From: a virus
Taxonomy: Duplodnaviria > Caudoviricetes
IMG/VR virus record: IMGVR_UViG_3300038416_000116
Span: 1-54,333 of that record
DNA length: 54,333 nucleotides
Reading direction: 5' to 3' (one strand)
How positions within the stretch are numbered: position 1 is the stretch's first letter; each line of letters opens with the position of its first letter. The notes below the pieces were generated by a model. The model was not told the DNA's origin. It was given only the letters and a program-made list of their open reading frames with translations, and ran no database searches. Of the stretch, positions 24,666-48,730 are shown piece by piece. Both the position numbers and the translations under genes were made by a program.

Positions 24666-24667
24666 TT

Positions 24668-33869: not shown

Positions 33870-34175
33870 ATGAAAAAGAAATTAGCTCCGGAAGATTGTC
33901 TTGCTTGCGTCTTGCACCAACGAATTTCAGTCAAAGATATAATTGAACCGTTGATAGCTCGACGAGATAAAGCGTTAGAGAGAGCGGAGCGAGCGCCTAC
34001 CAATGATCATATCGAGAGTGCAGTTGTAAAAGCTTGGGATGACTTCTATGAAGCTGTAAATAAGACTGATGTCGAAAGAGTTTCATTCACTGACGACCCG
34101 AAAGAATGGAACGGATTATGGGATATGTATACCCATTCAGAAGAAGGAGTCATCTACGCAAAGGAGATCATATGA
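33870..34175 (+). CDS. Protein with CLxC leader
   Basis: DCLACVLH; AAGGAGG SD. Confidence 0.55.
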   Translation: MKKKLAPEDCLACVLHQRISVKDIIEPLIARRDKALERAERAPTNDHIESAVVKAWDDFYEAVNKTDVERVSFTDDPKEWNGLWDMYTHSEEGVIYAKEII

Positions 34176-34663
34176 CTATGAAGCCAATCATACCCGCACT
34201 TGTTAAGGCTATGAGTGATGAATACAAGAAGGATGCTCGAGAGAAAGGTCTTATGCATGATGACCTAGAAAAGAAGCTTCAACATCATAAGAGGTTCGAA
34301 AGCTTGAGAGCTGACTGGGCAGAGAAGAGAGTCAACAGTATCTTCCGAGAGGTAGAGAGATATGGAATTACTATCAAGAAAGCTGAAGTTACAGGAGGAT
34401 GGAGAGGGACTACTCTTAAGGCGATATACCAAGGTGTAACGATGGAAGGAGAATTACAGTATCGATCGATGGATATGGTGAGACCTTACAAGCCTTGGAG
34501 AAGACCTAAGATTGTAGCCACCTTCTGGATCTTAGATAGCAATGGCAATAAGTGTTATCTAGAAGGACATATCCCATCAGCGTTCATGATTGTCTTCGGA
34601 GCAAAGCGAATGCTGACGTACAATCGGTTAATGCCTGCAGTCTTGAATGCAATGGCGAGGTGA
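34172..34663 (+). CDS. Hypothetical protein
   Basis: AAGGAG SD. Confidence 0.6.
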   Translation: MTMKPIIPALVKAMSDEYKKDAREKGLMHDDLEKKLQHHKRFESLRADWAEKRVNSIFREVERYGITIKKAEVTGGWRGTTLKAIYQGVTMEGELQYRSMDMVRPYKPWRRPKIVATFWILDSNGNKCYLEGHIPSAFMIVFGAKRMLTYNRLMPAVLNAMAR

Positions 34664-34665
34664 TT

Positions 34666-35049
34666 ATGGAAAATAAACTGTGCTGTGTTCTAAGTCCTTG
34701 GAGCCCTAAAGCTAAGACATGCGCTTATCATACTCGTATGTGGGCGTATGGAAGTCTACATGGCTCACCTGAAGCAATGCAAGGATGGGTTCCTGGAGAG
34801 AAGTCTCTTCCAGCTAGGTTCATAAAAGTAATAGAGATAGTAGGTAAGGTTAAGCGGAATGCTTTCTACGACTCCGCGCAAGTATCTAACCTATCTACTA
34901 AGAAGGCAGGCTACATAGTAAGGGTCGAAGGAGGTTATGTTCTTACAGAGAAGGGTAAGAAGTATCTTAAGGATCATCCAGCAATAACTGTAGATGTTAA
35001 AGAATGGATGGAAACAAAGTCCTCAAAGGGAAGAGGCTACAAACAATGA
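34666..35049 (+). CDS. LCC leader fused to a winged-helix-like domain
   Basis: MENKLCCVLSP...CAYH...GYIVRVEGGYVLTEKGKKYL. Confidence 0.55.
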   Translation: MENKLCCVLSPWSPKAKTCAYHTRMWAYGSLHGSPEAMQGWVPGEKSLPARFIKVIEIVGKVKRNAFYDSAQVSNLSTKKAGYIVRVEGGYVLTEKGKKYLKDHPAITVDVKEWMETKSSKGRGYKQ

Positions 35050-35274
35050 GCGAACATGGAAAGTCGTTACTTAGGTTGGTAGCAGCTTGAGAACAACATC
35101 CTATAACAAATGGGTGACTAAGATGAGGAGGGGTTTTCTTTAGCTACACTAACATAGAATATAAGATCGCGGGCCCGGGTCGGGCGGGGTCCCTCCCTTG
35201 CGGTAGCCCTGGTCATTTGAAACTCGCACCTCCACCGTCACTACGTTCCGGAGTCAAATATCGCTGGCTCGAGA

Positions 35275-35875
35275 ATGTTTTACCGTCTATCAAAAAGCTT
35301 TTAAGCGGCTTTATGTTTTACCCAGGATGGGCAAAAGGTGTGAAGCGGCAAAATGTTTTACCTCCTAATTATACTTTAAGATTGATCACGATGTTTTACC
35401 CAGGTCAAACGTTGGGTCTTTAAGAATGTATTTCCCCTCATAATCGTGATGATATGTTTTACCTAGGCAAAAGATATTGCTGAGGTAATACATTCTCTCC
35501 TTCTCTCCTTCCCTATGTTTTACCTCCGAAACAAAAAGCGTTCTTTGGAGTATAATAAATCATGCCCTACAGTCTATGCTGTGCAATGGGTGAAGCACCT
35601 TGGATGTGTCGTTACTGTAAGACCGCGTACTGTGGTGACTGTACCATGCAAAAGGATAGGCCTGGCTACTGGGACCCACTGTGTAAAAAGTGTCAGAAGG
35701 CCGGGTGGAGGATATACGTCGGACTGCCCTTAGACGAGTTCATGGATCCTAAGTAACTAAGCCGGGCCTATAGTCTTAATTTTATCCCTAGCCAGGAGTC
35801 TGCCTTGAAAAGGACCAAGGTAGCAAAGATATTATCTTTAAGCTGAAGATCTAATGTTTTACCTGGGTAAAACAT
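35275..35875. repeat. ATGTTTTACC repeat cluster (operator/iteron-like)
   Basis: Exact copies at 35275, 35313, 35353, 35391, 35454, 35515, 35854; last forms perfect palindrome ATGTTTTACC-TG-GGTAAAACAT. Confidence 0.85.
35562..35756 (+). CDS. LCC-family microprotein
   Basis: SLCCAMGE...CRYC...CGDC...CKKC. Confidence 0.6.
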   Translation: MPYSLCCAMGEAPWMCRYCKTAYCGDCTMQKDRPGYWDPLCKKCQKAGWRIYVGLPLDEFMDPK

Positions 35876-35964
35876 AGTTTGTCAGATTTTAATAACTTTA
35901 AGCTTAGCCTTCAATGTTTACCCCGATCCCGAAACAATTTTGCGTCCAATTCGTATATTATATA

Positions 35965-36141
35965 ATGGAAGCTCGATTATGTTGCGTCCTGGCACCGACT
36001 AAAATTAGCAAGTGTGGAATGGTATGGTGTTGGGTCTGTTGGCTCGAAGATACAGACCATTGGGGCGTACTCGATGCCTCCGGATATACTGCCTCATGCA
36101 AAATTCGAGCTCCTTGCAACCCGCAACAAAAGTTGATTTGA
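35965..36141 (+). CDS. LCC-family microprotein
   Basis: RLCCVLAP...CWVC. Confidence 0.6.
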   Translation: MEARLCCVLAPTKISKCGMVWCWVCWLEDTDHWGVLDASGYTASCKIRAPCNPQQKLI

Positions 36142-36444
36142 TTTGTATAATATAAGAGCTCTTCGTCTATAATGGAGTTCCTATTAAAAAGAATAGATGC
36201 AGCAATCGGGACGGTTGCGTTTCTTGCCAGAAGATGGGAGCCCTGTGTAAGGGTTACGCCTTCGTGAAGCTGGCAGGAGGGTACGAATACCCTCTGTGCT
36301 ATAAGTGCGTCCGGGACTGCTGCGGTGTAGGAAGACCCATACGCGGCGAGACCTATGAGTTGCTGAGCCCGTTCTCGTTAGGAGTTGCAGGGACCTTTTA
36401 TACTCCTAAGCCAATCACCATGGCTATCTATCCGGGAGTACCTA

Positions 36445-36612
36445 ATGAAGATACCGCTAAAGTGGATAAGGAACCCTCTTAGACCGGTATCGATAGCTCT
36501 AACGGGTCTAGCTATAGGACTGTTCATCAGCGGCCAGAAAACAGATTCCGCGGAATTTATATTGCTATTAGCTATCTGGGTTGACGGGCGCTCAGGTATA
36601 TATAACGATTAA
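36445..36612 (+). CDS. Small membrane protein
   Basis: Two hydrophobic segments. Confidence 0.45.
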   Translation: MKIPLKWIRNPLRPVSIALTGLAIGLFISGQKTDSAEFILLLAIWVDGRSGIYND

Positions 36613-36715
36613 GACCCGTTACAAAAACCAATTTCATTCGTATAATATATTAGCGCAATGTGAACGCGCAAAGATCTAGACTTGATAAGTAACTCAGGTC
36701 AGAGGAGGTAGTACA

Positions 36716-37078
36716 ATGAGCGAGAAGAAAGCGTTTAACATCACCCCGGCCCGCCAGGTTATCCTGAACGGTCTTCGGAACGGTGGATTGAAGTGGTCCG
36801 CCTTGCGGGTGGTTTATTTCGGTGAGAACCGTGCGAAGGGGGGAGCGTCCACTGCGTTCCATATGCAGTTGACGAAGATGATCGAGAACGGTCTGGTCCT
36901 GAAGGATGCGGCCACGGCGCTGTATTCGTTGACCGATGCCGGAACCCAGGCGATCATCGATCTCGAAGGCAAGGGCGTTGACCTGAGCCTCGCGGTCACC
37001 AATGCGTCCAAGAATGAGCCTACCATCAAGGTCAAGGCTCCCAAGGCTGCTGCGACTACGGTCGAGGTGCCTGCCTAA
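36716..37078 (+). CDS. Winged-helix DNA-binding protein
   Basis: ILNGLRNGG.KW...QLTKMIENGLVLK...YSLTDAG; GAGGAGG SD; GC-rich codons. Confidence 0.7.
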   Translation: MSEKKAFNITPARQVILNGLRNGGLKWSALRVVYFGENRAKGGASTAFHMQLTKMIENGLVLKDAATALYSLTDAGTQAIIDLEGKGVDLSLAVTNASKNEPTIKVKAPKAAATTVEVPA

Positions 37079-37079
37079 C

Positions 37080-37250
37080 AGGACGTGGCCAAGGGCTGAG
37101 GCGTAAATCAACCCAGTTAGCCACGGAGTCCGAGAACCAGTTGGTTCTCCTCCGTGCACTATTTGACCGAAATCTGACATCGCTGGAACGATAATCGGAG
37201 TGAAACCTTTCCAGAGGGACTAGCCCATTGGTGGCTAGCGGTCAATTAAT
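37080..37250 (+). ncRNA. Putative structured ncRNA
   Basis: Stems CGTGGC/GCCACG, CACGGAG/CTCCGTG, GAGAACC/GGTTCTC, TTGACCG/CGGTCAA, CTGGAA/TTCCAG, CTAGCC/GGCTAG. Confidence 0.4.
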
Positions 37251-37254
37251 TTAT

Positions 37255-37338
37255 AGCAGGGAGGTGGCTATTGGCTTGCCACGGGAGTCTCATAAGCTCC
37301 AGCCGAAAGGCGTGTCAGTTCGATTCTGACCCTTGCAA
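37255..37338 (+). tRNA. tRNA with CAT anticodon (Met or Ile2), atypical
   Basis: Acceptor AGCAGGG/CCTTGCA, D stem GTGGC/GCCAC, anticodon arm GGAGT-CTCATAA-GCTCC, variable hairpin GCC-GAAA-GGC, T arm GTCAG-TTCGATT-CTGAC. Confidence 0.75.
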
Positions 37339-37408
37339 CCTTTACTCAACGGAGGGCTAGGCTGTAGTCCGGAGGTGATGCCCGGAGTCTAGCCTTCCAG
37401 AATTTGAT

Positions 37409-37475
37409 TCCCTAGTAGTTTAATGGAAAACACGAGGTCGCACCTCGGACGCAAGTTCAAACCTTGCCAAGGGAG
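37409..37475 (+). tRNA. tRNA-like element with aberrant anticodon loop
   Basis: Acceptor TCCCTAG/CAAGGGA, D arm GTTT/AAAC, CGAGG-TCGCA-CCTCG (5-nt loop), T arm GCAAG-TTCAAAC-CTTGC. Confidence 0.6.
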
Positions 37476-37603
37476 CCGATTTGGTTCGGAGGTATCTATG
37501 TGCATGGTCTGCGTAGATGAAGCTGCTATGGGCGTTGCTATCGTTATAGCATCGATGCCATGGTGGAAGGTTCTTTGGACAAAGCTATTCCATAGGAAGT
37601 AAT

Positions 37604-37768
37604 ATGGAAGATAACCTAGGATGCCTAATAAATGGGCATCATATAGATATTGATAGGCTTAATGCCTATTGCGTAGACTGCGGCAAAGAATTGGTCTGCA
37701 TGTGCGACGTAGAAAAGGATGCCCTTTGTAAATGGGTTCTAATTGAAGAAGCTTTTCCAGGAGCCTGA
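37604..37768 (+). CDS. NLGCL..GH-family microprotein (below cutoff)
   Basis: MEDNLGCLINGH...CVDC. Confidence 0.6.
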   Translation: MEDNLGCLINGHHIDIDRLNAYCVDCGKELVCMCDVEKDALCKWVLIEEAFPGA

Positions 37769-37769
37769 T

Positions 37770-38027
37770 GTGGAAACCAATCTAGGCTGTGTTCTAAATG
37801 GCCATGTAGCCCCTTCAGGACATTACCAAGGTAATGACGAGATAGGTTTCTGGTCTGTGTGCGAAAATTGCAGTAATTCCATCTATACACCCCCTAGTCG
37901 TATAGATCCGCAGTGGAACTGGGTAGAGGCGACGGTAGCTCCTCCCGCGGTAGCGGAGGCGATTGTCGATCTAACCCTAAAAGCTAATACAAATCGTGAC
38001 GTAAGAGACCGGGGACGCCGCCCTTGA
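37770..38027 (+). CDS. NLGCL..GH-family microprotein
   Basis: ETNLGCVLNGH...CENC. Confidence 0.6.
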   Translation: METNLGCVLNGHVAPSGHYQGNDEIGFWSVCENCSNSIYTPPSRIDPQWNWVEATVAPPAVAEAIVDLTLKANTNRDVRDRGRRP

Positions 38028-38254
38028 CTCCCAAAATCTATCTCTGTTGCCAGATCCTACCTCTTTACTATTGTCTAGCTTGTAATCGACAATGGTGTTG
38101 GGAACACTGGGTTAATAAAGATGGTCATATCCGGATGAGATGTGCTAGACGTAAACTTAAAGAAGTCGAGCGGGAAGAAACTGATAAAGCTTTCGACCCT
38201 CTTACCCAACAATCCTGTAGCACAATTACCAAGGTCGTATACGATTTAGTTTAG
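38024..38254 (+). CDS. LCC-family microprotein
   Basis: YLCCQILP...CLAC...CWEH. Confidence 0.6.
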   Translation: MTPKIYLCCQILPLYYCLACNRQWCWEHWVNKDGHIRMRCARRKLKEVEREETDKAFDPLTQQSCSTITKVVYDLV

Positions 38255-38459
38255 CTCCCAAAACTATGATAAAGGTTAGGAAGTTACGTTTCAAACTCTT
38301 CGACCATTCGATTTTGGTTCAACATGCCTTCGATCGGTCCTTAGGGCCTTTTCACTTTCAGTACGTCGGACATAGTTGTCAGGGAGACAATAGATCCAAG
38401 AGTCTCTTTGTAGTAATCCTTTACTACGCGATGACTATAGAGGTCTGGAAGAGATAACT

Positions 38460-38780
38460 ATGACTAACCCAAAGCCTTGTGGAGATACGACTATGACACC
38501 AGCTGATGTTCTAAAAGATTTGGATAAGGCCCTAGCTCGATTCGGAACCTATGACTATTATGATAAGGGTGTCGATGAAGTCTTTGATGCTAGTAAAGCG
38601 ACCAGTTATGTTAGAAGCTTGGAGCCTGCGGATGCTGTAAGGTTCTTAGTTAGTCTTAGTAATCATGAACACGGTAGTCATCTTGTAAGTCATATCGTTA
38701 ATTGTCTTGATGACACTCCAGAAGAATGGTTTGAAGTTGTGGTCGAAGAATGTAGGGAAGCAGGACTCGACGTTTACTAG
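38460..38780 (+). CDS. Hypothetical acidic protein
   Basis: 106-aa ORF. Confidence 0.55.
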   Translation: MTNPKPCGDTTMTPADVLKDLDKALARFGTYDYYDKGVDEVFDASKATSYVRSLEPADAVRFLVSLSNHEHGSHLVSHIVNCLDDTPEEWFEVVVEECREAGLDVY

Positions 38781-38788
38781 ACCAATCT

Positions 38789-38959
38789 ATGGCCGATAAC
38801 CTAGCCTGCTTAATCAAAGGTCATACTCCTGGTAGAATGGTAACCTATACCCGCTTCGGAGTTCAAGGCTATTGTCTTCTGTGCGACCGTAAACTTATTT
38901 GTGTGCAGATGTTCGATAGGGATGCAGAAGAGTGGGTCGGAGAGAACGACAATGGTTAA
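38789..38959 (+). CDS. NLACL..GH-family microprotein (below cutoff)
   Basis: MADNLACLIKGH...CLLC. Confidence 0.6.
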   Translation: MADNLACLIKGHTPGRMVTYTRFGVQGYCLLCDRKLICVQMFDRDAEEWVGENDNG

Positions 38960-39128
38960 GCTTCTTTGTTGTACAATTAACCCAGAATTTGTTTGCGTTC
39001 AGTGTCGTCTAATAATTTGTCGCGAACATGACGAGAAGGAGCTAGAGTATTGTACGGCCTCATCTGCCAAAGGCTACATCAAAAGGCATTACTTCAAACC
39101 GATAACAAAAGATTGGGCACCATTTTAA
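38952..39128 (+). CDS. LCC-family microprotein
   Basis: LLCCTINP...CVQC...CREH. Confidence 0.6.
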   Translation: MVKLLCCTINPEFVCVQCRLIICREHDEKELEYCTASSAKGYIKRHYFKPITKDWAPF

Positions 39129-39411
39129 TATGAATCATTGGACGACTTGGAGTGCGGAGTATATAGCCTACTGTAGGAATGGCTATAGAGTTAAGTATGT
39201 TTGTTGTCAAAGGTCTGACAAATGTCTTTGCGGGCATAATTGGAAAGATGAAATGAAGATAGTTCACGATGTCGTATCAGGATATAGGTTATGACCAAAT
39301 CCCATTATTGTCGAGAAGGTTGGGGTCAGATCCGATGTAATCGTAACCGATGGCTTCTTGTTCGTAGAACAGATAAGTGGTCGAGGGTAACTTGTAAGTC
39401 GTGTATACGCT

Positions 39412-39621
39412 ATGGAAAATAACCTTTGTTGTCATCTTAGTCCTGTTGTCATTTGTGAGGGTTGTGATAGTAAGTGGTGCGATCCTTGTTCTAATTTGCC
39501 TAGCACGAGACATCGACCTTGTAATGATGGCTCACTAAGATGGACATGTGATAAGTATAAGGGTAAGCTTTGGGTAAGTCGCGGCAGTAACTATGCTATT
39601 ACCTTTTCGAAAGATCCTTGA
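39412..39621 (+). CDS. LCC-family microprotein
   Basis: NLCCHLSP...CEGC...CDPC. Confidence 0.65.
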   Translation: MENNLCCHLSPVVICEGCDSKWCDPCSNLPSTRHRPCNDGSLRWTCDKYKGKLWVSRGSNYAITFSKDP

Positions 39622-39622
39622 T

Positions 39623-39796
39623 ATGAATCCAAACAATCTCGGTTGCTTGATTAACGGCCATAGAATTGTTGAAAGGGATACGCCTGACTCGGTGCGTAAG
39701 TCGAAGATGCCTGACTATCCTTTTTGTATAGGCTGTCATCGTAGAATCATATGGTGGGATGGAAAGTTCATTTTGATTAGACCTTATAAGAGGTAA
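39623..39796 (+). CDS. NLGCL..GH-family microprotein
   Basis: NNLGCLINGH...CIGC. Confidence 0.6.
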   Translation: MNPNNLGCLINGHRIVERDTPDSVRKSKMPDYPFCIGCHRRIIWWDGKFILIRPYKR

Positions 39797-39801
39797 CGAC
39801 A

Positions 39802-40035
39802 ATGGCTTGGAAAACTGACGATCCTAAAGAATTACTACCTGACTTGCCGTTGACTAGAGCTTCGGTCGAAACGAATTGGGAGTCGGGCTATCCTAATTCT
39901 TTAGAGCGATGGATAAAAGATCTTAGTCCTACCTATACGTTAGATGCTGAGTACGACCTTGGAGATAACAAAACTCTCTATAGGTTTAAGTCTCTTGCAG
40001 GTCATTTTCAAAACGTTGTCATCGGGAATAAGTGA
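39802..40035 (+). CDS. Hypothetical protein
   Basis: GAGG SD. Confidence 0.5.
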   Translation: MAWKTDDPKELLPDLPLTRASVETNWESGYPNSLERWIKDLSPTYTLDAEYDLGDNKTLYRFKSLAGHFQNVVIGNK

Positions 40036-40349
40036 CTATGGATGAAGAAATGATTAAGATACTAATCGCGGTCGCTTGCTTCGTTTATATGCCTTCGCCG
40101 TACGGAATTCTTGCTGCCCTAGTTGTTTTCTTTCTTCTATAGGAGACCTATGAATAAGAAATTCGGATGGGCTTTTGTCGTAGCGTGGTTCGGAATGGTT
40201 CTTCTCCAGCTCACTTGGATAGGACTTTTCGTTTGGGCTGTCGTTCATTTCGTCCGTAAGTTTTGGTAGTCTATGACTAAGTTCCAGATGTTCGAGTGCG
40301 TCGTAGGATTCGTTTTTATGGTTTGGATGTTTGCGGATGTCGACTAAAT

Positions 40350-40508
40350 ATGAACGAGAATCTAGGTTGTTTAATTAAAGGTCACTATCCGGGAGATCCT
40401 GATCTTGGCTTCGGTAGTCTGAGACCTATTTACATTTGTAAGGGGTGCAGACAGCCTGTGACCTTCGATTGGAATCCTGAAGTAAGAGAGTGGGTCGTAA
40501 AGGAGTGA
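40350..40508 (+). CDS. NLGCL..GH-family microprotein
   Basis: ENLGCLIKGH...CKGC. Confidence 0.6.
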   Translation: MNENLGCLIKGHYPGDPDLGFGSLRPIYICKGCRQPVTFDWNPEVREWVVKE

Positions 40509-40584
40509 CTATGTTTTTACTTCCAGTAATAGCTCTAGGGTCAATAGCTTTGATGGCGACGTGGATGGTTAAGAAGATAGGTAA

Positions 40585-40737
40585 ATGAGAAAGTATCTGT
40601 GGACGGAGCTGCTCGACATGTATCATAAGCCAGGCCCTTGTTGCTGGTTGGATCCTTGGACACTCATAAACTATAAGATTTGCGTTCCATGTCTAGAAAG
40701 GTTTATGGATAAGTATAGACATATGCGCTCACTATGA
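40585..40737 (+). CDS. LCC-like (PCC variant) microprotein (below cutoff)
   Basis: GPCCWLDP...CVPC. Confidence 0.45.
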   Translation: MRKYLWTELLDMYHKPGPCCWLDPWTLINYKICVPCLERFMDKYRHMRSL

Positions 40738-41027
40738 TTACCATAAAGCTATCTCGTTACGACGCTAGACGACTAAAGTTCTATCTAGATGTAGGAATGC
40801 CTCTCAAAGATATCTACTTCAAGTGGGAACGTCGTCTTGCAGAACAGCTAGAGAAGGCCCTCAAAAGAAGACGGAGGTAACGTGATCCTACTGCTCTGGA
40901 CGGCTATAGGCCTCGTTATTCTTAATGGAATTTATCCGATACCTAAGCCAGAAGATCTATTAGTTATGACGATGCGACCAATAATAAATCTTACGATGGA
41001 TCTGAGAAACTTCATCCTAGAGGCGAT

Positions 41028-41258
41028 ATGAACGACTGTCTTGCCTGCCTTATCAAGCCGACTTGGATGTGTGAGAACTGCGATAAAGTAGGATGTTGTA
41101 GGGATCATACGAACACGTTTACTATCTTTCAGGCTAAGGATTGTGATGAGGGGGAAGTAGTCTCCTGCGCTCAGTGCCGTGCGCAAGTTTCGGACAATTT
41201 TAGAGGTAAGATGCATTGGTCGACCTGCTTAAAAAACTTCCTCGACAGGCCTTACTAA
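41028..41258 (+). CDS. CLxCL-variant microprotein
   Basis: DCLACLIKP...CENC...CRDH...CAQC. Confidence 0.6.
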   Translation: MNDCLACLIKPTWMCENCDKVGCCRDHTNTFTIFQAKDCDEGEVVSCAQCRAQVSDNFRGKMHWSTCLKNFLDRPY

Positions 41259-41527
41259 TGAACAATTTATGTTGTGTCATACAGCCGGCGAATATATGTT
41301 ATTACTGTGAAGGGGTGTGGTGTCTTTCTTGTTGGTCGAAGATGTTTGCAGGCAGAGGGCTTAACTTCGACAGATGTTCTTTAGGTAATTTTCCAGGTGG
41401 TGACGATCGCGGAGGGCACTACACCTATACATACGGTGGATCTATATACGACAAGTCCTACGTTGATCGTCATTGGATCAGCCGGGCTGCTGCGACCGTA
41501 GAAACGGACAAGAAAATTGCGGGCTGA
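41258..41527 (+). CDS. LCC-family microprotein
   Basis: NLCCVIQP...CYYC...CLSC. Confidence 0.65.
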   Translation: MNNLCCVIQPANICYYCEGVWCLSCWSKMFAGRGLNFDRCSLGNFPGGDDRGGHYTYTYGGSIYDKSYVDRHWISRAAATVETDKKIAG

Positions 41528-41660
41528 TCTTATACTATAAGATGAAGACCCTAAAATTGAACCTCAAGCCGACCCGTATATCCTATTGAGCTTCGGGGTC
41601 TTTAGGGGATGTTCTTGCGGTCACTTTACGGGTAGCTTCCGGTCACTTTAAGGGAGAGTT

Positions 41661-41870
41661 ATGGCCACTCAACGCTTTGGAGTCGGAGATATCGTTGTCG
41701 CGTCGCCTGCAAAAGGTATCCAAATTTATGGAACGGTATCTTGGGTAGGCTCTGACGGTTCAGTTGAAATTACAGAGCCTAGCGGCAGCGCAGGAATGTA
41801 TGCTCAGTATATGGTAACGCATCGTCAACCATCATGGCCGGGCGTAGCCAGCCGTAAGAAAAAGAAGTAA
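41661..41870 (+). CDS. Small SH3/KOW-like protein
   Basis: FGVGDIVV...GTVSWV..DGSVEI. Confidence 0.5.
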   Translation: MATQRFGVGDIVVASPAKGIQIYGTVSWVGSDGSVEITEPSGSAGMYAQYMVTHRQPSWPGVASRKKKK

Positions 41871-41986
41871 GGGACGACAGGCTTGGAGAAACAAGTGACC
41901 AAACGAAAGCGAAAGAAGTCTACGTGGCGACCTCCTACGGCCAAAGAGCTTAAGGCTTTTGAGAAGAAGTACAAACCTAAATCGAT

Positions 41987-42706
41987 ATGAACAATCTATG
42001 CTGTCTCATCAGTCCATCTCTTAAAGACGAATCTGGAAGCGGTTGGTGCCCTGCCCATTGGTTTGAATCAGGGATCAAGTTTGTTACAATAAACGCAGGC
42101 ACCTTTAATATGGGTGAGGATGTGCAGCACGAAGTTACATTAACTCGTAACTATGATCTGGGAGTCTATCCTGTGACACAGCAGGAGTACCAGAGTGTTA
42201 TGAAGGTTAACCCTTCTCAATTTGAAAATCCTTTGTCTCCTGTCGAAACAGTATCCTGGGATGATTTGCAGAAGTTTATAGAGAAGCTAAACCAGATACA
42301 AAAGAAATACTTCTATCGATTGCCTACAGAAGGAGAATGGGAGTATGCCTGTAGAGCGGGCACTAACAAACCTTTTTCATTCAGTGAATCTAAATTGGAC
42401 TCGTACGCTTGGTTTGATAAAAATGCTAAAGGAACATCTCATCCTGTTGGTCAGAAGAAACCAAATAGATGGGGGCTCTATGATATGCACGGCAACATCT
42501 GGGAGTGGTGCCAAGACTGGTACGCAGACTATCCTATAGGTAAAGCGGTAGATCCTTTTGGACCTAAAACCGGCTCGCGCCGGGTCGTCCGGGGCGGCTC
42601 CTGGTACGACGATGCCAGGCTCCTCCGCTCCGCCCGCCGCAACTACGCCGTCCCGGGCTTTCGCTACCCCGGCTTGGGGGTCCGCCTCGTGAGGTCATGC
42701 TGTTGA
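41987..42706 (+). CDS. LCC leader + FGE-sulfatase (C-type lectin fold) protein, DGR-target-like
   Basis: MNNLCCLISP; GTFNMG, YPVTQ, PVETVSW, RLPTEGEWEYACRAG, PN.WGLYDMHGNIWEWC.D, RVVRGGSW...G.RL. Confidence 0.88.
   Translation: MNNLCCLISPSLKDESGSGWCPAHWFESGIKFVTINAGTFNMGEDVQHEVTLTRNYDLGVYPVTQQEYQSVMKVNPSQFENPLSPVETVSWDDLQKFIEKLNQIQKKYFYRLPTEGEWEYACRAGTNKPFSFSESKLDSYAWFDKNAKGTSHPVGQKKPNRWGLYDMHGNIWEWCQDWYADYPIGKAVDPFGPKTGSRRVVRGGSWYDDARLLRSARRNYAVPGFRYPGLGVRLVRSCC
42572..42694 (+). other. DGR variable region (VR)
   Basis: Abrupt GC-rich, A-poor segment; positions that are Asn in FGE-type TRs are all NNC/NNT codons. Confidence 0.7.
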
Positions 42707-42738
42707 CCTTTGGTTTGTTGGACTCTTGGCTGTTGTTG

Positions 42739-42781
42739 TGGCGCCTCGCCCGAGTTGCTGTTGACCGGATGCGAGGCGCCA
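42739..42781. repeat. GC-rich hairpin downstream of VR
   Basis: TGGCGCCTCGC-N21-GCGAGGCGCCA. Confidence 0.8.
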
Positions 42782-42832
42782 GCGAGGATGAACGTTAAAC
42801 GATCTTTGTTGTGTACTCAATCCTAAATCGAT

Positions 42833-43063
42833 ATGAAGAAGCAACTCTGTTGTGTTCTTAATACAAGTGCCATCTGTGATGAGTGTGGAAAGGTTTGGTG
42901 TCGCCCATGTTGGAATCGTTCCCCTAACAAACACCACTTCGGGGTTAATCCCGCGGAAGATGGAATCTTGTACAGAATGTGTCCTAAAACAAAAAGAAAG
43001 GTTATGGCAGAGAGAGACCTTACAACAATAATACATTTGTCGACGAAATGGTTTAAGACATGA
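42833..43063 (+). CDS. LCC-family microprotein
   Basis: QLCCVLNT...CDEC...CRPC. Confidence 0.65.
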   Translation: MKKQLCCVLNTSAICDECGKVWCRPCWNRSPNKHHFGVNPAEDGILYRMCPKTKRKVMAERDLTTIIHLSTKWFKT

Positions 43064-43272
43064 ACAACTTATGTTGTCTACTAGGTCACGTCTACATAAA
43101 GTGTACCCAATGTGATAGCCAATGGTGTTGGCAATGTTGGGTAGAAGACGAAGGTCATGCAGTTAAGTTAGATGAGTCCAGACAAGTATCTCGAAAATGT
43201 CCTGTAACTAAGAAACGTTTAAGTACCAATCGTACTGAGTATCCTGTTTATACCCTTGAGCTTCAACCATGA
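43060..43272 (+). CDS. LCC-family microprotein
   Basis: NLCCLLGH...CTQC...CWQC. Confidence 0.65.
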   Translation: MNNLCCLLGHVYIKCTQCDSQWCWQCWVEDEGHAVKLDESRQVSRKCPVTKKRLSTNRTEYPVYTLELQP

Positions 43273-43442
43273 ACAAGCTGTGCTGTGAAATTAATCCCTT
43301 CCAGATATGTACTAGATGCAAAGAAACTATTTGTGTTCCTTGCTGGAATGCAAATGATATCTGGGCCTGCGTAGAGCCTCACTCAGGACATAACTATCAA
43401 GTAGGAGGACACTTTTGGGTGTATTACAGAAATGACCTCTAA
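43269..43442 (+). CDS. LCC-family microprotein (below cutoff)
   Basis: MNKLCCEINP...CTRC...CVPC. Confidence 0.6.
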   Translation: MNKLCCEINPFQICTRCKETICVPCWNANDIWACVEPHSGHNYQVGGHFWVYYRNDL

Positions 43443-43689
43443 ACTTTGCTGTGCCTTAAATCCAGAAATGACTTGCGGGTTCTGTAAGGAAGAATGGTGT
43501 TCGACCTGCTACTACGCTTTAACAGATTGGCCAAATAATCCATGCAGCGTTCCTAACACATCGGGATCTGACCAAGGTAACCACTATACAATGGATATAG
43601 GGAGCGAGATGACCAATCCTAGTCGTGTTCGTCTTCTGCAGGACAACGAGAAAGTTACAGACTTCGATCAAATGAAATCAAGGATATGA
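43432..43689 (+). CDS. LCC-family microprotein
   Basis: KLCCALNP...CGFC...CSTC. Confidence 0.65.
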   Translation: MTSKLCCALNPEMTCGFCKEEWCSTCYYALTDWPNNPCSVPNTSGSDQGNHYTMDIGSEMTNPSRVRLLQDNEKVTDFDQMKSRI

Positions 43690-43844
43690 ATGAAAATTTA
43701 GGTTGCTTGGTCAAAGGTCATCATCCTACTGACTATGGAATCTGTTACGACTATTCAACAGGCAGATATAGTGCGACTTGCGGTGGCTGTAAAGAAAAGA
43801 TTTGGATCGACACTGAAGGCGATCACCAATGGAAACTAATCTAA
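43686..43844 (+). CDS. NLGCL..GH-family microprotein (below cutoff)
   Basis: MNENLGCLVKGH...CGGC. Confidence 0.6.
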   Translation: MNENLGCLVKGHHPTDYGICYDYSTGRYSATCGGCKEKIWIDTEGDHQWKLI

Positions 43845-44062
43845 GCCTCTGCTGTATACTATCACCTTGGGCTATCTGTAAAGGATGCAGCGGAACATGG
43901 TGTGTACACTGTTGGGGATATGATAGAGGAGGCTCAACTCACCATCCCTATACTAGCGTAAGAGGTGGCTGGGTCAGAGATTGTAATGGCGTAAAGGTCT
44001 TTGAAGACAAAAATTTAAAGGGTCCTCCATATGTCTTAACTCTTTATGAAACTAAAATCTAA
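43829..44062 (+). CDS. LCC-family microprotein
   Basis: SLCCILSP...CKGC...CVHC. Confidence 0.65.
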   Translation: METNLSLCCILSPWAICKGCSGTWCVHCWGYDRGGSTHHPYTSVRGGWVRDCNGVKVFEDKNLKGPPYVLTLYETKI

Positions 44063-44261
44063 GCTTTGTTGCGTTCTTAATAGCAAAGTAAATTGTCCTG
44101 CCTGCGGGATACACTTTTGTCACGACTGTTGGATAGCGGATGCTATTCACTCTCCTACTCCTAGATCGCGTGGCGAGTTGTTCTGTAGTTCAACAGGCGT
44201 TAAAATTGAGTGGGTAGAAGTTGAATCGCTTGAAGATTTTAGACTCATAGCGAAAGAGTAG
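44046..44261 (+). CDS. LCC-family microprotein
   Basis: KLCCVLNS...CPAC...CHDC. Confidence 0.65.
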   Translation: MKLKSKLCCVLNSKVNCPACGIHFCHDCWIADAIHSPTPRSRGELFCSSTGVKIEWVEVESLEDFRLIAKE

Positions 44262-44263
44262 TT

Positions 44264-44476
44264 ATGGGGCTACCTCTTTGTTGTATCTTAAATGGGATCC
44301 AAAATGACGGACACTGCTGCGGGTTTAAATTATGTGAGCCCTGCACCGATAAGTATAGACAAATGAAATCTAAAATTTATAGGAATGATAGGTGCAATTA
44401 CATTGCAGATCTTCACGCCGTCTTTAGTCCAGAATGCGATGAGATACGAGCACGTATCCCTTACAGACTAAAATGA
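44264..44476 (+). CDS. LCC-family microprotein
   Basis: PLCCILNG...CCGFKLCEPC...ADLH; subfamily with 48259 and 51457. Confidence 0.65.
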   Translation: MGLPLCCILNGIQNDGHCCGFKLCEPCTDKYRQMKSKIYRNDRCNYIADLHAVFSPECDEIRARIPYRLK

Positions 44477-44703
44477 GACCTCTCGAGATGAACAAGAAAC
44501 TAATTGTATTAGGAATGATTGCAATAGCAAGCGTAATGTATCTACTTCGTACGCACTACACGGTTGGAGAAGAATCTTGGTGTGCTGTTGATCATTGGAA
44601 CAATACGCAATGCTACTACGAGTCTTACGAGGAATGCATGAAGGTAGTACAACTACCTGATAGCATATGGGTAAGCTGCAAGAAGACTAATCCAGGAGGC
44701 TAA
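44473..44703 (+). CDS. Small exported Cys protein (DUF3551-like)
   Basis: Signal/TM segment then WCA...CYYESYEEC. Confidence 0.5.
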   Translation: MRPLEMNKKLIVLGMIAIASVMYLLRTHYTVGEESWCAVDHWNNTQCYYESYEECMKVVQLPDSIWVSCKKTNPGG

Positions 44704-44886
44704 ATGTTCTACACACTCGTTAGGCTTTCAGATCAAATTGTTCTTCGGTCTCTCGAATCGGAAGAAGAGATCAACTCAATCTTAGTCGAGCTCCACGGTG
44801 ACGGAGCAGATCTTCACGACTACGATATCATTCAGACGGACAAGTTGTATCAAGAAGACCAAGTGTTAGATGAAACCTATGCCTAA
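44704..44886 (+). CDS. Small acidic hypothetical protein
   Basis: AGGAGG SD. Confidence 0.5.
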   Translation: MFYTLVRLSDQIVLRSLESEEEINSILVELHGDGADLHDYDIIQTDKLYQEDQVLDETYA

Positions 44887-45124
44887 ACTTTGTTGCGTTC
44901 TTAATCCTCATCTTGAATGTGAAGCCTGTGGCATCAGAGTATGTATAGAGGAAAGAGACAAAGAAGGGAATTGGCTTACATGGAAGCTTCATGACTACGT
45001 GGATGACGAGACGTACACCAACGGAAAATTGATGAAAGAATTGATGTACGAGTGCCCTACAACAAAGATAAGAGTTATTACAGACTACAGCGTGAAGCAT
45101 CTTCGCTTCAAGAGGATACCATGA
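44870..45124 (+). CDS. LCC-family microprotein
   Basis: KLCCVLNP...CEAC. Confidence 0.65.
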   Translation: MKPMPKLCCVLNPHLECEACGIRVCIEERDKEGNWLTWKLHDYVDDETYTNGKLMKELMYECPTTKIRVITDYSVKHLRFKRIP

Positions 45125-45438
45125 AACCGGTTGATGCTTCACCACTTCCTACGCTGTGCTGCGAACTGAATCCGCTAATGGCAACGTCAGGTAAGAGGAT
45201 CTATCAGGAAGATGGATTACCTACATACGTAGAACTAACGCCCCTACTATGTAGGTTTTGTGGTTGTAAGGTTTGTGAAGAGTGTTGGAAGAGTGGGAAG
45301 CACTTCGTCAAGAACTTCGTTGCTGGAGAAGAAGAGGACGTGTATGGATGGAAGCCGCTGCTAGAAGTTAAACGAGAAATGCCGTCATGTATCAATCCTT
45401 GGCACAATATGCTGCTGAGGACGAAAGCAAGCCTATAG
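45121..45438 (+). CDS. LCC-family protein with insertion
   Basis: TLCCELNP...CRFC...CEEC. Confidence 0.6.
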   Translation: MKPVDASPLPTLCCELNPLMATSGKRIYQEDGLPTYVELTPLLCRFCGCKVCEECWKSGKHFVKNFVAGEEEDVYGWKPLLEVKREMPSCINPWHNMLLRTKASL

Positions 45439-45634
45439 GCATCATAGGAGAACCTGTGAAAGATAGAGCGCCTCCGTATTAACTTCTAGGAGCGAACGAG
45501 AATTACTTATTGAGGTGCTGGCGTAGGTTCCTGGCGCCTCTAAAACAAACTAACAAAGACCTGGAGTAAGATAGTACTAATTAGCTTCTAGGAGAACTCC
45601 TAGCTAGAGATTAATTAGGAACTCTTACTCCAGG
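45437..45634. repeat. Two long imperfect hairpins in an intergenic gap
   Basis: AGGCATCA..GAACCTGTG / CGTAGGTTC..TGGCGCCT; CCTGGAGTAAGA (45560)...TCTTACTCCAGG (45634) enclosing CTAGGAG-AA-CTCCTAG. Confidence 0.65.
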
Positions 45635-45652
45635 CACAATTTGAGAAATGCA

Positions 45653-45892
45653 ATGGATAAGAAATCTACTGACGAACGTAATCTCTGCTGTATTCTTAAT
45701 GCAAGGGGTAAAATGGTGTGCGGCCATTGCAACAGATGGCTATGTGAAAGTTGTGCCTTTGATGATAAATATTATGTAGCGTGTAGTTTGGGAGGCAGGA
45801 GACCTGAATCTACTTACTATCATTGCCCGAGACATATAAGGCTTTGTAAGACGAGACTAGAAAAAGGGGCCGTCATACAAGAAAGAAGATAA
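45653..45892 (+). CDS. LCC-family microprotein
   Basis: NLCCILNA...CGHC...CESC. Confidence 0.65.
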   Translation: MDKKSTDERNLCCILNARGKMVCGHCNRWLCESCAFDDKYYVACSLGGRRPESTYYHCPRHIRLCKTRLEKGAVIQERR

Positions 45893-45894
45893 AT

Positions 45895-46128
45895 ATGATA
45901 AAATATACTCATAAAGTTCGTGAGCAGCGCCTCTGCTGTGTACTAAATAGATCTTGTTTCATTACCAAACACCTTAAACCCTTTATCACTAGGCATCCTC
46001 ATATGATAGCAAAGATACTTCAAGATAAGTTCGTAACCTCAAGCTATCAGTTGTGGAAAGAAGACATTCTCTATACCCCTGGATACGTTGCAGGATACTT
46101 AGGAAGTATGCTTCTCAACCGAAAATAA
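45895..46128 (+). CDS. LCC leader with non-Zn C-terminus
   Basis: RLCCVLNR, no CxxC after. Confidence 0.55.
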   Translation: MIKYTHKVREQRLCCVLNRSCFITKHLKPFITRHPHMIAKILQDKFVTSSYQLWKEDILYTPGYVAGYLGSMLLNRK

Positions 46129-46308
46129 TATGAACATACAAAAGAGCACCTGCACTTGCGGTAAGCTTCATACAGTGGTTGTCTTCTTAGGAAGACTAGT
46201 GATACACTGTTCTCCACGACTTTGTCGTTCTATAAAGGCTCATCCCTGTATAAAGGAAGGAGCTAAAGCATATCCATTATTCAAAGCGTACATGCGGGCG
46301 ATACCCTA

Positions 46309-46509
46309 ATGGCATTAAAGCTTTGCTGTGTCTTAGAAGGTTTAGCGGAGCATTGCGCCTTCTGTAATAAGGAACTTAAATTTTGTAAGATCCATATAAC
46401 AGGAACCAACGATCATTTTCTAAATGGCAATTGTCGTTTGCGAAAAGAGGGATGTGTATGCTCAAGCGAAAAATTGTGCAAGTGCTTGGCAGCTTCTGCT
46501 GCCGAATGA
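46309..46509 (+). CDS. LCC-family microprotein
   Basis: KLCCVLEG...CAFC...CKIH. Confidence 0.6.
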   Translation: MALKLCCVLEGLAEHCAFCNKELKFCKIHITGTNDHFLNGNCRLRKEGCVCSSEKLCKCLAASAAE

Positions 46510-46703
46510 ATCCTACTATCATTTGTCATGGATGTGATAAGTATTGGTGTGAGAAATGTAATCCCTCAAACAACCCTGAATGGAACGATCCTAAAGGACA
46601 TAAGTGTCTTGGGAAGAATTGGATGTGTCCTGCTGGAGGATTTGTCTGGCTGCATAAAACGCGGGGCGATGGCATCTCACATCTAGAGCGTTATGTCGAA
46701 TAA
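46458..46703 (+). CDS. LCC-family microprotein (FCC variant)
   Basis: SFCCRMNP...CHGC...CEKC. Confidence 0.55.
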   Translation: MLKRKIVQVLGSFCCRMNPTIICHGCDKYWCEKCNPSNNPEWNDPKGHKCLGKNWMCPAGGFVWLHKTRGDGISHLERYVE

Positions 46704-46863
46704 ACTTTGCTGTGTCTTAAATACCTATCTTAAATGTTCTACATGTGATTGGGTTCTTTGTATGGCTTGCAGATCAATAGAATCTGTAAATTGTTATGCG
46801 CTACACAGAAAACAACTTGGATGCAAAGGTCATACTATATTAGTTAACGTCTATGGAAAATAA
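46693..46863 (+). CDS. LCC-family microprotein (below cutoff)
   Basis: MSNKLCCVLNT...CSTC...CMAC. Confidence 0.6.
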   Translation: MSNKLCCVLNTYLKCSTCDWVLCMACRSIESVNCYALHRKQLGCKGHTILVNVYGK

Positions 46864-47020
46864 AGAGAACCTAGCCTGCTTAATTAAGGGTCACGAAGAG
46901 ATAGCAGGAACTTCAAATAACGTTACGTCGCGTTGTAAGTATTGCGGCAGAGAGATTGAGTGCAGAGCAATACATGGCGGCGGGGATAAGGATTGTATAT
47001 GGCAACTCTATGGCGAATGA
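46853..47020 (+). CDS. NLACL..GH-family microprotein (below cutoff)
   Basis: ENLACLIKGH...CKYC. Confidence 0.6.
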   Translation: MENKENLACLIKGHEEIAGTSNNVTSRCKYCGREIECRAIHGGGDKDCIWQLYGE

Positions 47021-47216
47021 GAACCTAGCGTGCCTGTTAAATGGACACAAACCCACAGGTGTAACCCTTAATACAAGGACGACTTGCTGCTACTGTCACG
47101 AGCCGCTTTACTATGTGGGTGATATATTTTGGGACGAGCAATACTGTTGGAAAACTAAAGAAGAGATGGACAAAACAAATGATAGACCAACCGGATTCGA
47201 TCCAGATTATCCATAA
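47010..47216 (+). CDS. NLACL..GH-family microprotein
   Basis: ENLACLLNGH...CCYC. Confidence 0.6.
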   Translation: MANENLACLLNGHKPTGVTLNTRTTCCYCHEPLYYVGDIFWDEQYCWKTKEEMDKTNDRPTGFDPDYP

Positions 47217-47490
47217 CGACTTATGTTGTGAGGTGTCGCCTTTCTTGTGCTGCTACGCGTGTGGTGCTAAGAAATGTGCAGATCATTACTACCGATTACA
47301 GGAACACTTAGCAGACACACACCTTAAGGTACTTCAAACCGATGATCACTACGTGACGCACTGCACGATCACAAATACTCTTTGCTGTCAAGTTACGCCG
47401 GGAAGACTAGACTTTGTTCAGAAGTGCACTCATGGAAAAAATCCAAATGGATCAACATCTGTCATATCGAAAGCTAGTAATGCCGGGTGA
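47179..47490 (+). CDS. LCC-family protein with two LCC motifs
   Basis: DLCCEVSP...CYAC...CADH...TLCCQVTP. Confidence 0.55.
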   Translation: MIDQPDSIQIIHNDLCCEVSPFLCCYACGAKKCADHYYRLQEHLADTHLKVLQTDDHYVTHCTITNTLCCQVTPGRLDFVQKCTHGKNPNGSTSVISKASNAG

Positions 47491-47833
47491 TCTCAATTCG
47501 GCTCATACCCTCTTTGGCGGCACAATAATGAAATGGGCCGACGAAGCTGTAAGCATTTACGTTATGTGCCAACTGGGTACTAAGAAGGTTGTTACATTAA
47601 AGGTCAGTGAGATCCTTTTTAAAGAACCTGTTCAAGAAGGAGACGTCCTCGAGTTCATGGCAAGCACTGTTAAGGTAGGCAACACATCTATTACAGTCAA
47701 GTTAGATGTGCAACGCAAGTCAATCGAAGACAAGACTATAGTAGCCCCAACTGTTCTGTCATGTGAGTTCGTCTTCGTTGCAGTCGACGATAAGGGTCGG
47801 CCCACGCAACATAAGCTTTCAAAACGAGTATAA
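47432..47833 (+). CDS. Acyl-CoA thioesterase (hot-dog fold, YciA-like)
   Basis: VMPGDLNSAHTLFGG..MKWADE...VVT...F..PV..GD...VGNTS...FVFVAVD..GRP. Confidence 0.85.
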   Translation: MEKIQMDQHLSYRKLVMPGDLNSAHTLFGGTIMKWADEAVSIYVMCQLGTKKVVTLKVSEILFKEPVQEGDVLEFMASTVKVGNTSITVKLDVQRKSIEDKTIVAPTVLSCEFVFVAVDDKGRPTQHKLSKRV

Positions 47834-47916
47834 TATGAATCACGCTGCTGAAGTTTGCTTGTTAGCAGGTATAGGGTGCTTAGTCTATGCTATTAGCCTG
47901 ATGAGGGAGAACTAGA

Positions 47917-48129
47917 ATGAGCGCTAAGCTTTGTTGTATCCTTAGCCCACGAGACTATTGCACATACTGCGAACAGCCTATGTGCGATGACTGTGGAAGA
48001 ATACGCGAACTTAAAAAGAAAGAGGCGTACAACTGGCATAAACTAGCTCCAGGATATAGTTCTTGTACCCCTCGAGATAGAAATTTTGTATTTGATGGAC
48101 ACTATTACGGCGGCAAGCCTGTAGTATGA
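47917..48129 (+). CDS. LCC-family microprotein
   Basis: KLCCILSP...CTYC...CDDC. Confidence 0.65.
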   Translation: MSAKLCCILSPRDYCTYCEQPMCDDCGRIRELKKKEAYNWHKLAPGYSSCTPRDRNFVFDGHYYGGKPVV

Positions 48130-48299
48130 GAAAGCGTTGCACTCGTCTTTGCTGTGTTGTTAACCCTTTAGTTATGTGTGTCCATTGTAAAGAAAAACTT
48201 TGTCAGACGTGCGTCTGGAATACGGAATGCTTTCACAAGCTAGCTGAGGTAGGTCAAGATGGAAAACCAAGACACGCCTTTAGGATCTTCGACAACTAA
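48126..48299 (+). CDS. LCC-family microprotein (below cutoff)
   Basis: RLCCVVNP...CVHC...CQTC. Confidence 0.55.
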   Translation: MRKRCTRLCCVVNPLVMCVHCKEKLCQTCVWNTECFHKLAEVGQDGKPRHAFRIFDN

Positions 48300-48525: not shown

Positions 48526-48730
48526 TAAACTTTGTTGTCTTCTAAACCCTAGCTACAAATGTTATTTGTGCAACTGGTTAAGGTGCAAAGACTGTTGGGA
48601 TGGGCTCGAACAAGGCTCGCACTATACAATGAGGGTCGGGCAAGAAGTAGATCTTTACGATGTCAAATATTTTAAGCGTAGACATAAAAAGGAAGGACGT
48701 ATATGTTGTCTGGAAGGAAAAACTCTATGA
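48515..48730 (+). CDS. LCC-family microprotein
   Basis: KLCCLLNP...CYLC...CKDC. Confidence 0.65.
   Translation: MVNNKLCCLLNPSYKCYLCNWLRCKDCWDGLEQGSHYTMRVGQEVDLYDVKYFKRRHKKEGRICCLEGKTL

Follow-up and report, generated by a model that had tools for sequence, protein, structure and literature searches.

The window analysed here is the entire IMG/VR record IMGVR_UViG_3300038416_000116 (54,333 bases, an estimated ~27% of the phage genome). Its plus strand holds dozens of small open reading frames (ORFs) with a Leu-Cys-Cys (LCC) motif, and the same leader fronts an unrelated intact domain. The question raised by this locus is whether the motif is a tag that can be placed on any protein or a part of the fold in which it is found. 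An earlier note on the sequence favoured the former and read LCCxLxP as a stand-alone tag, degron, acylation site or intermolecular clasp. The analysis gave another answer: LCC is probably ligand pair 1 of an eight-ligand, two-metal finger with a cross-brace like that of RING, ZZ and FYVE domains, of which a minimal knuckle, pair 1 together with pair 3, would survive recombination.

A six-frame scan for LCCx[LIVM] followed by at least 30 residues showed 55 motifs in 54 ORFs, all on the plus strand. The ORFs are mostly 55-100 residues long and are confined to 19.4-26.2 kb and 33.9-54.3 kb; about ten further ORFs in the window have L[GA]C or CLxC at the equivalent place. At the nucleotide level, the degenerate pattern YTNTGYTGYNNNNT has 60 matches (57 on the plus strand) compared with 4.24 ± 2.03 expected, and none of 100 shuffles reached 60. 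The leucine of the motif is encoded by CTT (27), CTC (11), CTA (11), TTA (8), CTG (5) and TTG (4), and the second cysteine by TGT (43) and TGC (23). This synonymous variation indicates that LCC is conserved at the protein level and rules out a DNA-level element, such as a promoter, a recombination site or an RNA, as the source of the conservation. The genes lie in two arrays, referred to below by number; individual ORFs are named by their first position.

19372..26168, plus strand: array 1 of LCC-family genes, split by the ribonucleotide reductase gene at 20406-22175
33870..54333, plus strand: array 2 of LCC-family genes, reaching the contig end, with a tRNA-Met, a 4HBT thioesterase, an AAA ATPase and small membrane-like ORFs interspersed

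A profile of 41 window paralogues matched 294 representative metagenomic proteins at E<=0.001 among 1.84 billion, and nearly all of the 150 representatives listed are 55-125 residues long and begin with M-x(2-3)-LCC. A related complete genome (G001; 210,348 bases, terminal repeats, 55% terminase identity) has 61 profile matches and 64 LCC matches. The family has no Pfam or PHROG model, and full-text literature searches found no paper on it. Degenerate DNA scans of viral contigs, from which near relatives of the record were possibly excluded, gave no match for M-N-[NK]-LCC..NP and seven for N-[NK]-LCC..NP, all of them chance matches without family features. Alignment of 115 representatives showed that L4, C5, C6, C15, C18 and C23 are invariant, that H33 and C47 are at least 90% conserved and that position 26 is C, H, D or E. 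Canonical tails account for 228 of 258 distinct tails; in these, the second Cys of the motif is followed by pair 2 at a spacing of 8 (217 tails) and by pair 3 at a spacing of 16 (212 tails), and at the second ligand position of pair 3, 164 tails have C, 56 have H, 6 have D and 2 have E. The conserved positions and spacings thus define eight ligand positions in four pairs, with the family pattern M-x(2-3)-L-C-C-x-[LIV]-N-P-x3-C-x2-C-x4-[W/hydrophobic]-C-x2-[C/H]-[W/Y/F]...H...C. The reference member and three canonical variants are as follows.

43060..43272, plus strand: reference canonical member (P0001), ligand positions C5, C6, C15, C18, C23, C26, H33 and C47, carrying the alignment invariants
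41028..41258, plus strand: canonical member whose first knuckle is C-L-A-C instead of L-C-C, with a Cys at -3
45121..45438, plus strand: canonical member with a 22-residue insert that separates LCC..NP from the CxxC pairs, and a distance of 30 residues from the second Cys to CRFC; five cluster members
51457..51756, plus strand: long-spacer member with LCC, a 23-residue spacer and then W-C-T-C-G-F-G-L-C-D-T-C

The distance from LCC to the first CxxC does vary, as had been remarked before (30 residues in 45121 and 23 in 51457), and six members of G001 also have long inserts between pair 1 and pair 2. The loop between these pairs is variable in RING-type fingers, and the inserts count in favour of such a finger because they fall in this loop.

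An AlphaFold2 (AF2) model of the 43060 member (predicted local distance difference test, pLDDT, of 70.4) has a turn at residues 4-8, a hairpin formed by residues 11-14 and 21-23 with pair 2 at its tip, and a helix of residues 24-29 that starts at pair 3. As modelled, the layout of the canonical member is that of a treble clef. In the proposed mechanism, LCC would supply ligands 1 and 2 and form the first metal-binding knuckle of a small cross-braced treble-clef zinc finger. The CC of pair 1 and the C-x2-C/H of pair 3, at the start of the helix, would hold one metal, and pair 2, at the hairpin turn, would hold the other together with the H...C of pair 4. We infer that the metal is zinc, that both vicinal cysteines bind the same ion and that the topology is cross-braced. 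Since pairs 1 and 3 would make a self-sufficient four-ligand site, LCC with a hydrophobic-C-x2-[C/H] dyad could persist once the second site is lost. Such a minimal knuckle would be what fronts the FGE-sulfatase domain, a winged-helix-like tail and tails without CxxC. These non-canonical ORFs, together with the long-spaced 45121 and 51457, had been listed in the earlier note, and all of them are present as described there.

41987..42706, plus strand: LCC leader and FGE-sulfatase-fold domain (MNNLCCLISPS...; C5 and C6, then W-C21-P-A-H24-W; domain at residues 32-236)
34666..35049, plus strand: LCC leader and weakly winged-helix-like tail (127 residues, MENKLCCVLSPW...; C6 and C7, then C19-A-Y-H22)
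45895..46128, plus strand: LCC ORF without CxxC (77 residues; C20 and H25 as C-x4-H, plus H33 and H35)
47179..47490, plus strand: ORF with two LCC motifs, the first (47221) canonical and the second (47380) followed by K-C-T-H at a spacing of 13
33870..34175, plus strand: CLAC-variant ORF (101 residues; C10-L-A-C13-V-L-H16, then a Cys-free tail; weak Pfam matches only)

Partner ligands accompany the motif throughout the window. A Cxx[CH] dyad lies within 45 residues after LCC in 53 of the 55 motifs; 45895 has C-x4-H instead, and the second copy in 47179 has C-x-H. By way of background, a 25-residue stretch of 107 non-family ORFs holds Cxx[CH] in 1.7% and C-x(1-4)-[CH] in 3.5% of cases. The tail of 45895 does lack CxxC, as had been claimed, but close dyads remain in it, in the second copy of 47179, in 34666 (C-A-Y-H) and in 41987 (W-C-P-A-H-W). 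The retained dyad can be compared with the pairs of the canonical tails. Of these 228 tails, 198 have a hydrophobic residue just before pair 3 and 88 have one just before pair 2; 127 have an aromatic residue just after pair 3 and none has one just after pair 2. His is restricted to pair 3. The nine single-pair forms read WCPAHW, VCQRCF, VCQQCF, VCQRCF, ICKKCY, ICKQCL, ICGEHL, YCINCA and TCAYHT, with a spacing of 12-15 in seven of them, 18 in YCINCA and 26 in ICKKCY. Judged by its neighbouring residues, the retained dyad looks like pair 3 and not pair 2. Pairs 1 and 3 are kept while pairs 2 and 4 are lost, as a cross-brace predicts. The single-site forms, together with the treble-clef layout of the model, lend indirect support to a predicted pairing of 1 with 3 and 2 with 4 rather than 1 with 2 and 3 with 4.

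For 45895 itself, a frameshifted canonical gene was ruled out, as no other frame continues the canonical pattern. The exact sequence is absent from the protein collection searched, and its sole viral locus (L053) was rejected as a wrong-frame chance match. When the 45895 protein was modelled as a homodimer holding two zinc ions, the score was 0.00 compared with a mark of 0.32, a result obtained without controls and neutral on an intermolecular clasp.

The first cysteine of the motif can be replaced, provided that another ligand takes its place. A substitute ligand is present in each of the 14 family-like L[GA]C members: His at +5 in 11 of them, Cys at +5 in one and Cys at -3 in two (the CLAC members 41028 in the window and 107593 in G001), whereas His at +5 occurs in only 7 of 121 LCC members. 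Such tolerated replacement argues for a metal knuckle and not for a sequence-specific tag or an acylation site. A sub-family with the pattern M-x-[ED]-N-L-[GA]-C-L-I-[KN]-G-H followed by a single CxxC is found in ORFs of 52-85 residues interleaved with the LCC genes; since it has four ligands only, it is probably a one-metal relative of the LCC family.

37604-37768, 37770-38027, 38789-38959, 39623-39796, 40350-40508, 43686-43844, 46853-47020 and 47010-47216: L[GA]CLI[KN]GH sub-family ORFs
40350..40508, plus strand: NL[GA]CLIKGH example with the four ligands C7, H12, C30 and C33 (repeat family D3)

Placement at the N terminus is not obligatory, judging from the reading frames. In the tandem two-module proteins P0006-P0008 the second LCC is internal. 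Three related phages (G001/G005, which are identical, G007 and G008) conserve a form with four Cys, LCCxVNPxxxIYxKxVCQxCF, in which some 40 residues of the stop-to-stop frame come before LCC; the distance from the nearest upstream Met to LCC is 24, 16 and 16 residues. This four-Cys ortholog group, about 65-80 residues long, stands beside non-array genes (21033 in G001, locus L046; 11627 in G007, locus L063; 13693 in G008, locus L065; compare 19372-19560 in the window).

Two known lipidation signals were considered. A lipobox consists of a charged n-region, a hydrophobic h-region and then L-[AS]-[GA]-C; a bacterial lipoprotein lipobox was excluded, as the motif is preceded by polar N/K/E, lies 3-4 residues past Met and has no hydrophobic run before it. 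Dual-Cys S-acylation of the eukaryotic type requires an N-terminal position and a host acyl-transferase. It was rejected in view of the conserved internal copies and of a terminase of tailed-phage type whose nearest named relative is that of Bacillus phage G.

A broader alternative is that the leader also, or instead, serves as a recognition peptide, such as a docking site, a degron or a packaging signal, read by a common partner. The L, the two Cys and [LIV]-N-P form the most conserved stretch of a very divergent family (mean column identity of 10-13%), and the distance from LCC to the nearest preceding Met is 3-4 residues in 103 of 150 motif instances. The motif fronts the intact FGE domain, the model of that fusion shows its residues 1-20 as disordered, and genes for AAA ATPases and metallopeptidase-like proteins lie in and beside the array. 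However, the first Cys is replaceable by G or A given His or Cys at +5 or -3, the motif also occurs internally, the partner dyad is always present in the window and fusions to foreign domains are very rare. A recognition peptide appears distinctly unlikely as the explanation of the motif. As for the stand-alone tag, degron, acylation site or clasp proposed in the earlier note, the dyad in 55 of 55 motifs, the compensated loss of the first Cys and the internal copies speak against all of them.

The leader does front an unrelated intact domain, as had been noted, and the ORF 41987 is the one solid case. Residues 32-236 of its protein match positions 5-255 of the 255-position PF03781 profile, at E=1.9e-43. 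The AF2 model has a mean pLDDT of 89.2, with values >90 from residue 31 and <50 for residues 1-20; it was folded from FGE homologues only, in an alignment that left residues 1-20 uncovered. The protein is found as four 239-residue strain variants from several sources, with identical N-termini and differences at three positions of the FGE domain. It is therefore neither an assembly chimera nor a decayed pseudogene, the latter being an outcome that the earlier note had named as counting against its reading. LCC is present in none of 79 aligned FGE homologues, and among the 120 matches listed only the window's own has it. Of the N-termini of the 79 homologues, which are bacterial, 27 have a hydrophobic run and 13 a lipobox-like motif, suggesting that the phage protein swapped an export signal for the LCC leader. 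The column of residue 213 is Cys in 59 of the 79 homologues and Leu in 41987; residues 205-218 have no Cys, and one strain variant has a Cys at 207. We take the Cys of this column to be the active-site Cys, from the catalytic pair, that follows the RGGSW motif of formylglycine-generating enzyme. As it lacks this Cys, the 41987 protein should not be called a formylglycine-generating enzyme.

The surroundings of the FGE gene bear on how the fusion arose.

41972..42004, plus strand: 33-nt direct repeat, upstream copy, lying across the start of 41987 (repeat family D8, 82% identity, copies 846 nt apart)
42818..42850, plus strand: 33-nt direct repeat, downstream copy, lying across the start of the LCC gene that follows (42833)
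42804..42836, plus strand: LCCVLNPKSI-stop, a remnant without a start, located after the FGE gene and before the LCC gene that follows

The remnant is probably a recombination scar, and together with the flanking repeat it points to recombination between LCC gene starts. We infer that the fusions are of recombinational origin: they would arise among tandem paralogues with alike 5' ends. A fusion of this origin could be a mere by-product of the tandem array, whose LCC start was inherited from a neighbour and has no role of its own there. Besides the flanking repeat and the nearby remnant, this is suggested by the absence of counterparts to either the FGE fusion or 34666 in the close relatives G001 and G005-G008, by the lack of viral relatives found for 34666 or 45895, by one source that starts 34666 without the leader, and by the other N-termini of the bacterial FGE homologues. 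The FGE-domain loci of other viral contigs (L003-L007) have no LCC genes. However, the FGE fusion has lost pair 2 yet kept W-C-P-A-H-W at a spacing of 15, which is the position of the third pair in the family, its N-terminus is the same in strain variants whose FGE domain varies, and gene packing is tight, with the starts of 34666 and 45895 lying 3 nt past the preceding stop. A by-product without function is unlikely.

The proposed winged-helix fusion of 34666 was only partly upheld. The ORF has the LCC leader and its tail is weakly winged-helix-like, but the Pfam matches reach only E=0.082 (HTH_45) and E=0.084 (Mrr_N), and the start differs by source, being 127 residues long with LCC or 103 residues long from Met25 without it. 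Its nearest ESM Atlas clusters are Mrr_N (0.85-0.86, a lead only), and the Atlas's own model has a pLDDT of 0.37. No relatives of 34666 were found in viral contigs, and its tail has no similarity to the two winged helix-turn-helix paralogues of the window. These paralogues, at 28784-29083 and 36716-37078, share 36% identity (E=9e-19); one matches HTH_45 at E=1.8e-5, and neither has the LCC leader. The CLAC variant at 33870 is likewise present, but its membership in the family is uncertain, as it has C, C and H only, with a Cys at -3 and no downstream partner pair; the exact protein occurs on 15 contigs. In contrast to most array genes, 33870 has AAGGAGG upstream.

Searches for further fusions were negative. 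Among 3,534 candidates of 162-2000 residues for longer fused forms, the profile search gave none at E<=10, which is weak evidence. Pfam searches of longer members (the 79416 ORF of G001, P0060, P0137, P0138 and P0147) and of the tandem proteins showed no significant domain, and none of the 150 representatives listed joins LCC to a recognised domain. The portability of the leader, for which a catalogue of fused domains had been suggested, is thus real but rare, with one recognised foreign domain across two phage genomes and 150 metagenomic representatives.

The cysteines might also not be zinc ligands. They could be engaged in disulfides, belong to an iron-sulfur or rubredoxin-like centre, or carry modifications like those of the precursors of ribosomal natural products, with the N-terminus as the leader. 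The array resembles precursor-peptide families in its many small, Cys-rich tandem genes, which are hypervariable but share a conserved N-terminus, and rubredoxin is among the weak structural neighbours (Z 2.1). However, the conserved 4+4 ligands, which include His, are spread over the whole domain and not split into leader and core, no modifying enzyme typical of precursor-peptide pathways was seen in the window, and the FGE-like protein lacks the Cys at position 213. Any of these non-zinc roles is extremely improbable.

Several observations weigh against the cross-brace finger itself. Foldseek with the canonical model gave no match at E<=0.001, with RING domains in the top rows, and an exhaustive VIA search reached a best Z of only 3.4, its list being mostly RING/U-box domains aligned from residues 1-3. 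Profile matches to solved structures are all sub-significant (rabphilin-3A FYVE-like, E=0.026; HERC2 ZZ, 0.13; Vps27 FYVE, 0.4; TRIM B-box), and the Pfam matches, IBR_1 at E=0.013 and ZZ_ADA2, zf-B_box and ANCHR-like B-box at E 0.03-0.06, lie below cut-offs. The kinds of domain among these weak matches, mostly RING/U-box by structure and FYVE, ZZ and B-box by profile, count in favour of the finger. By language-model features, the nearest ESM Atlas clusters are IBR-like (0.90-0.93), and IBR domains bind zinc sequentially rather than in a cross-brace. Two adjacent cysteines rarely chelate a single zinc ion. One exception to the dyad was found: 62376 in G001 (LCCILNPVVQEMC...) is family-like and has a single further Cys but no dyad. 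In the FGE fusion, residues 1-20, which the alignment left uncovered, give no support in the model for a folded N-terminal knuckle and do not speak against one either, and the retention of C-x2-H in the fusions may partly reflect recent descent rather than selection. Finally, the Leu, the Asn-Pro and the position 3-4 residues past Met are conserved beyond the bare need for ligands. With Leu and Asn-Pro so strongly conserved and the motif usually placed right after Met, an added recognition role for the leader is conceivable, and the finger leaves room for it.

Comparisons with known zinc domains show where the family may stand. Like RING/U-box domains, it has four pairs of ligands, eight in all; the loop that follows pair 1 is variable, pair 2 sits on a hairpin and a helix starts at pair 3. 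However, its pair 1 is a vicinal CC instead of CxxC, 4 residues separate pairs 2 and 3, Z values are at most 3.4, and the family, which belongs to a tailed phage, shows no sign of E2-binding function. ZZ, FYVE and B-box domains share the core C-x2-C-x4-C-x2-C followed by His and Cys ligands, which is what the weak profile matches align to, but the LCC proteins have a distinct first knuckle, are free-standing with 55-90 residues and dozens of copies per genome, and score below the cut-offs. IBR domains are also small, two-zinc and of the C6HC type and are the nearest language-model clusters; in contrast to their sequential binding, the LCC and pair-3-like dyad retained in the single-site forms argue for a cross-brace. 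HVO_2753 of Haloferax is among the weak Foldseek rows. Small zinc-finger micro-proteins of prokaryotes, such as the C(P)XCG proteins of Haloferax (see PMC11241148), are likewise free-standing and shorter than 100 residues with one or two Cys4-type sites, but they have another motif and are not known to have a vicinal-Cys knuckle or a comparable tandem expansion. With the exact family left aside, the ligand pattern and the model make the canonical LCC protein most likely a small two-metal finger of the cross-brace class.

As to the rest of the contig, the ORFs on the minus strand at 1-18.7 kb resemble structural genes, as read from the ORF list, and include the large terminase subunit (10855-12450, minus strand), whose nearest named relative is that of Bacillus phage G (30.9% identity). 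The terminase has no relatives among the bacterial genomes searched. The minus-strand ORF 4662-7685 (1007 residues) adjoins a putative capsid ORF, has long Lys/Glu/Ala-rich low-complexity stretches and no Pfam match, and may be a scaffold or protease fusion. The plus strand encodes ribonucleotide reductase, an AAA_5 ATPase, a DUF2201 metallopeptidase/VWA protein, a 4HBT thioesterase and an AAA ATPase. Just upstream of array 2 lies the AAA_5 (MoxR-like) ATPase gene (30247-31359), followed a few genes on by the DUF2201 metallopeptidase/VWA gene (32626-33810). Within array 2 are the contig's one tRNA, a tRNA-Met (CAT) at 37255-37340, the 4HBT thioesterase gene (47414-47833), the AAA ATPase gene (49377-50678) and ORF 50692-51195, which has a HEIAHAHH metallopeptidase-like motif and no Pfam match.

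Most array genes (e.g. 43060, 43269, 43432 and 43686) have no obvious Shine-Dalgarno sequence in the 20 nt upstream. Many of their starts overlap the preceding stop (ATGA), and codons 2-3 are mostly AAY/AAR. Between two LCC genes, ORF 46130-46309 encodes 59 Cys/His-rich residues (CTCGKLH...HC...C...HPC) without the LCC leader and may be a further divergent relative of the family. ORF 54117-54332, which runs off the contig end, reads N-C-L-P-C-L-L-R-Q-G-H-S-Y-C-V-H-C-E-E-P-I-C-D-V-C, a CLxC-type first knuckle followed by canonical pairs.

A bolder form of the finding would be that LCC and one hydrophobic-C-x2-C/H pair, about 25 residues in all, form a modular zinc-dependent adaptor that this phage clade places on unrelated cargo for docking onto a common hub. 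The cargo would then comprise dozens of hypervariable tails, the FGE-fold domain and the winged-helix-like domain, the array would be a library sharing one address label, and the hub could be, for example, a phage AAA machine, a host target or the capsid interior. Such an adaptor is very unlikely.

The LCC family makes up a large share of two related large phage genomes, with 54 LCC ORFs and about ten L[GA]C/CLxC ORFs here and the 61 profile matches in the 210-kb relative. From its ligand pattern and predicted fold, it is best read as a new family of cross-brace-like zinc fingers, very large and found in phages. Reading LCC as a ligand knuckle would allow annotators to recognise the family and its variants (LCC, CLxC and L[GA]C..H), predicts an unusual vicinal-Cys metal site and recasts the fusions as products of array recombination. 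As a guess, such tiny, fast-diverging zinc scaffolds may be candidate binders for host take-over or counter-defence.

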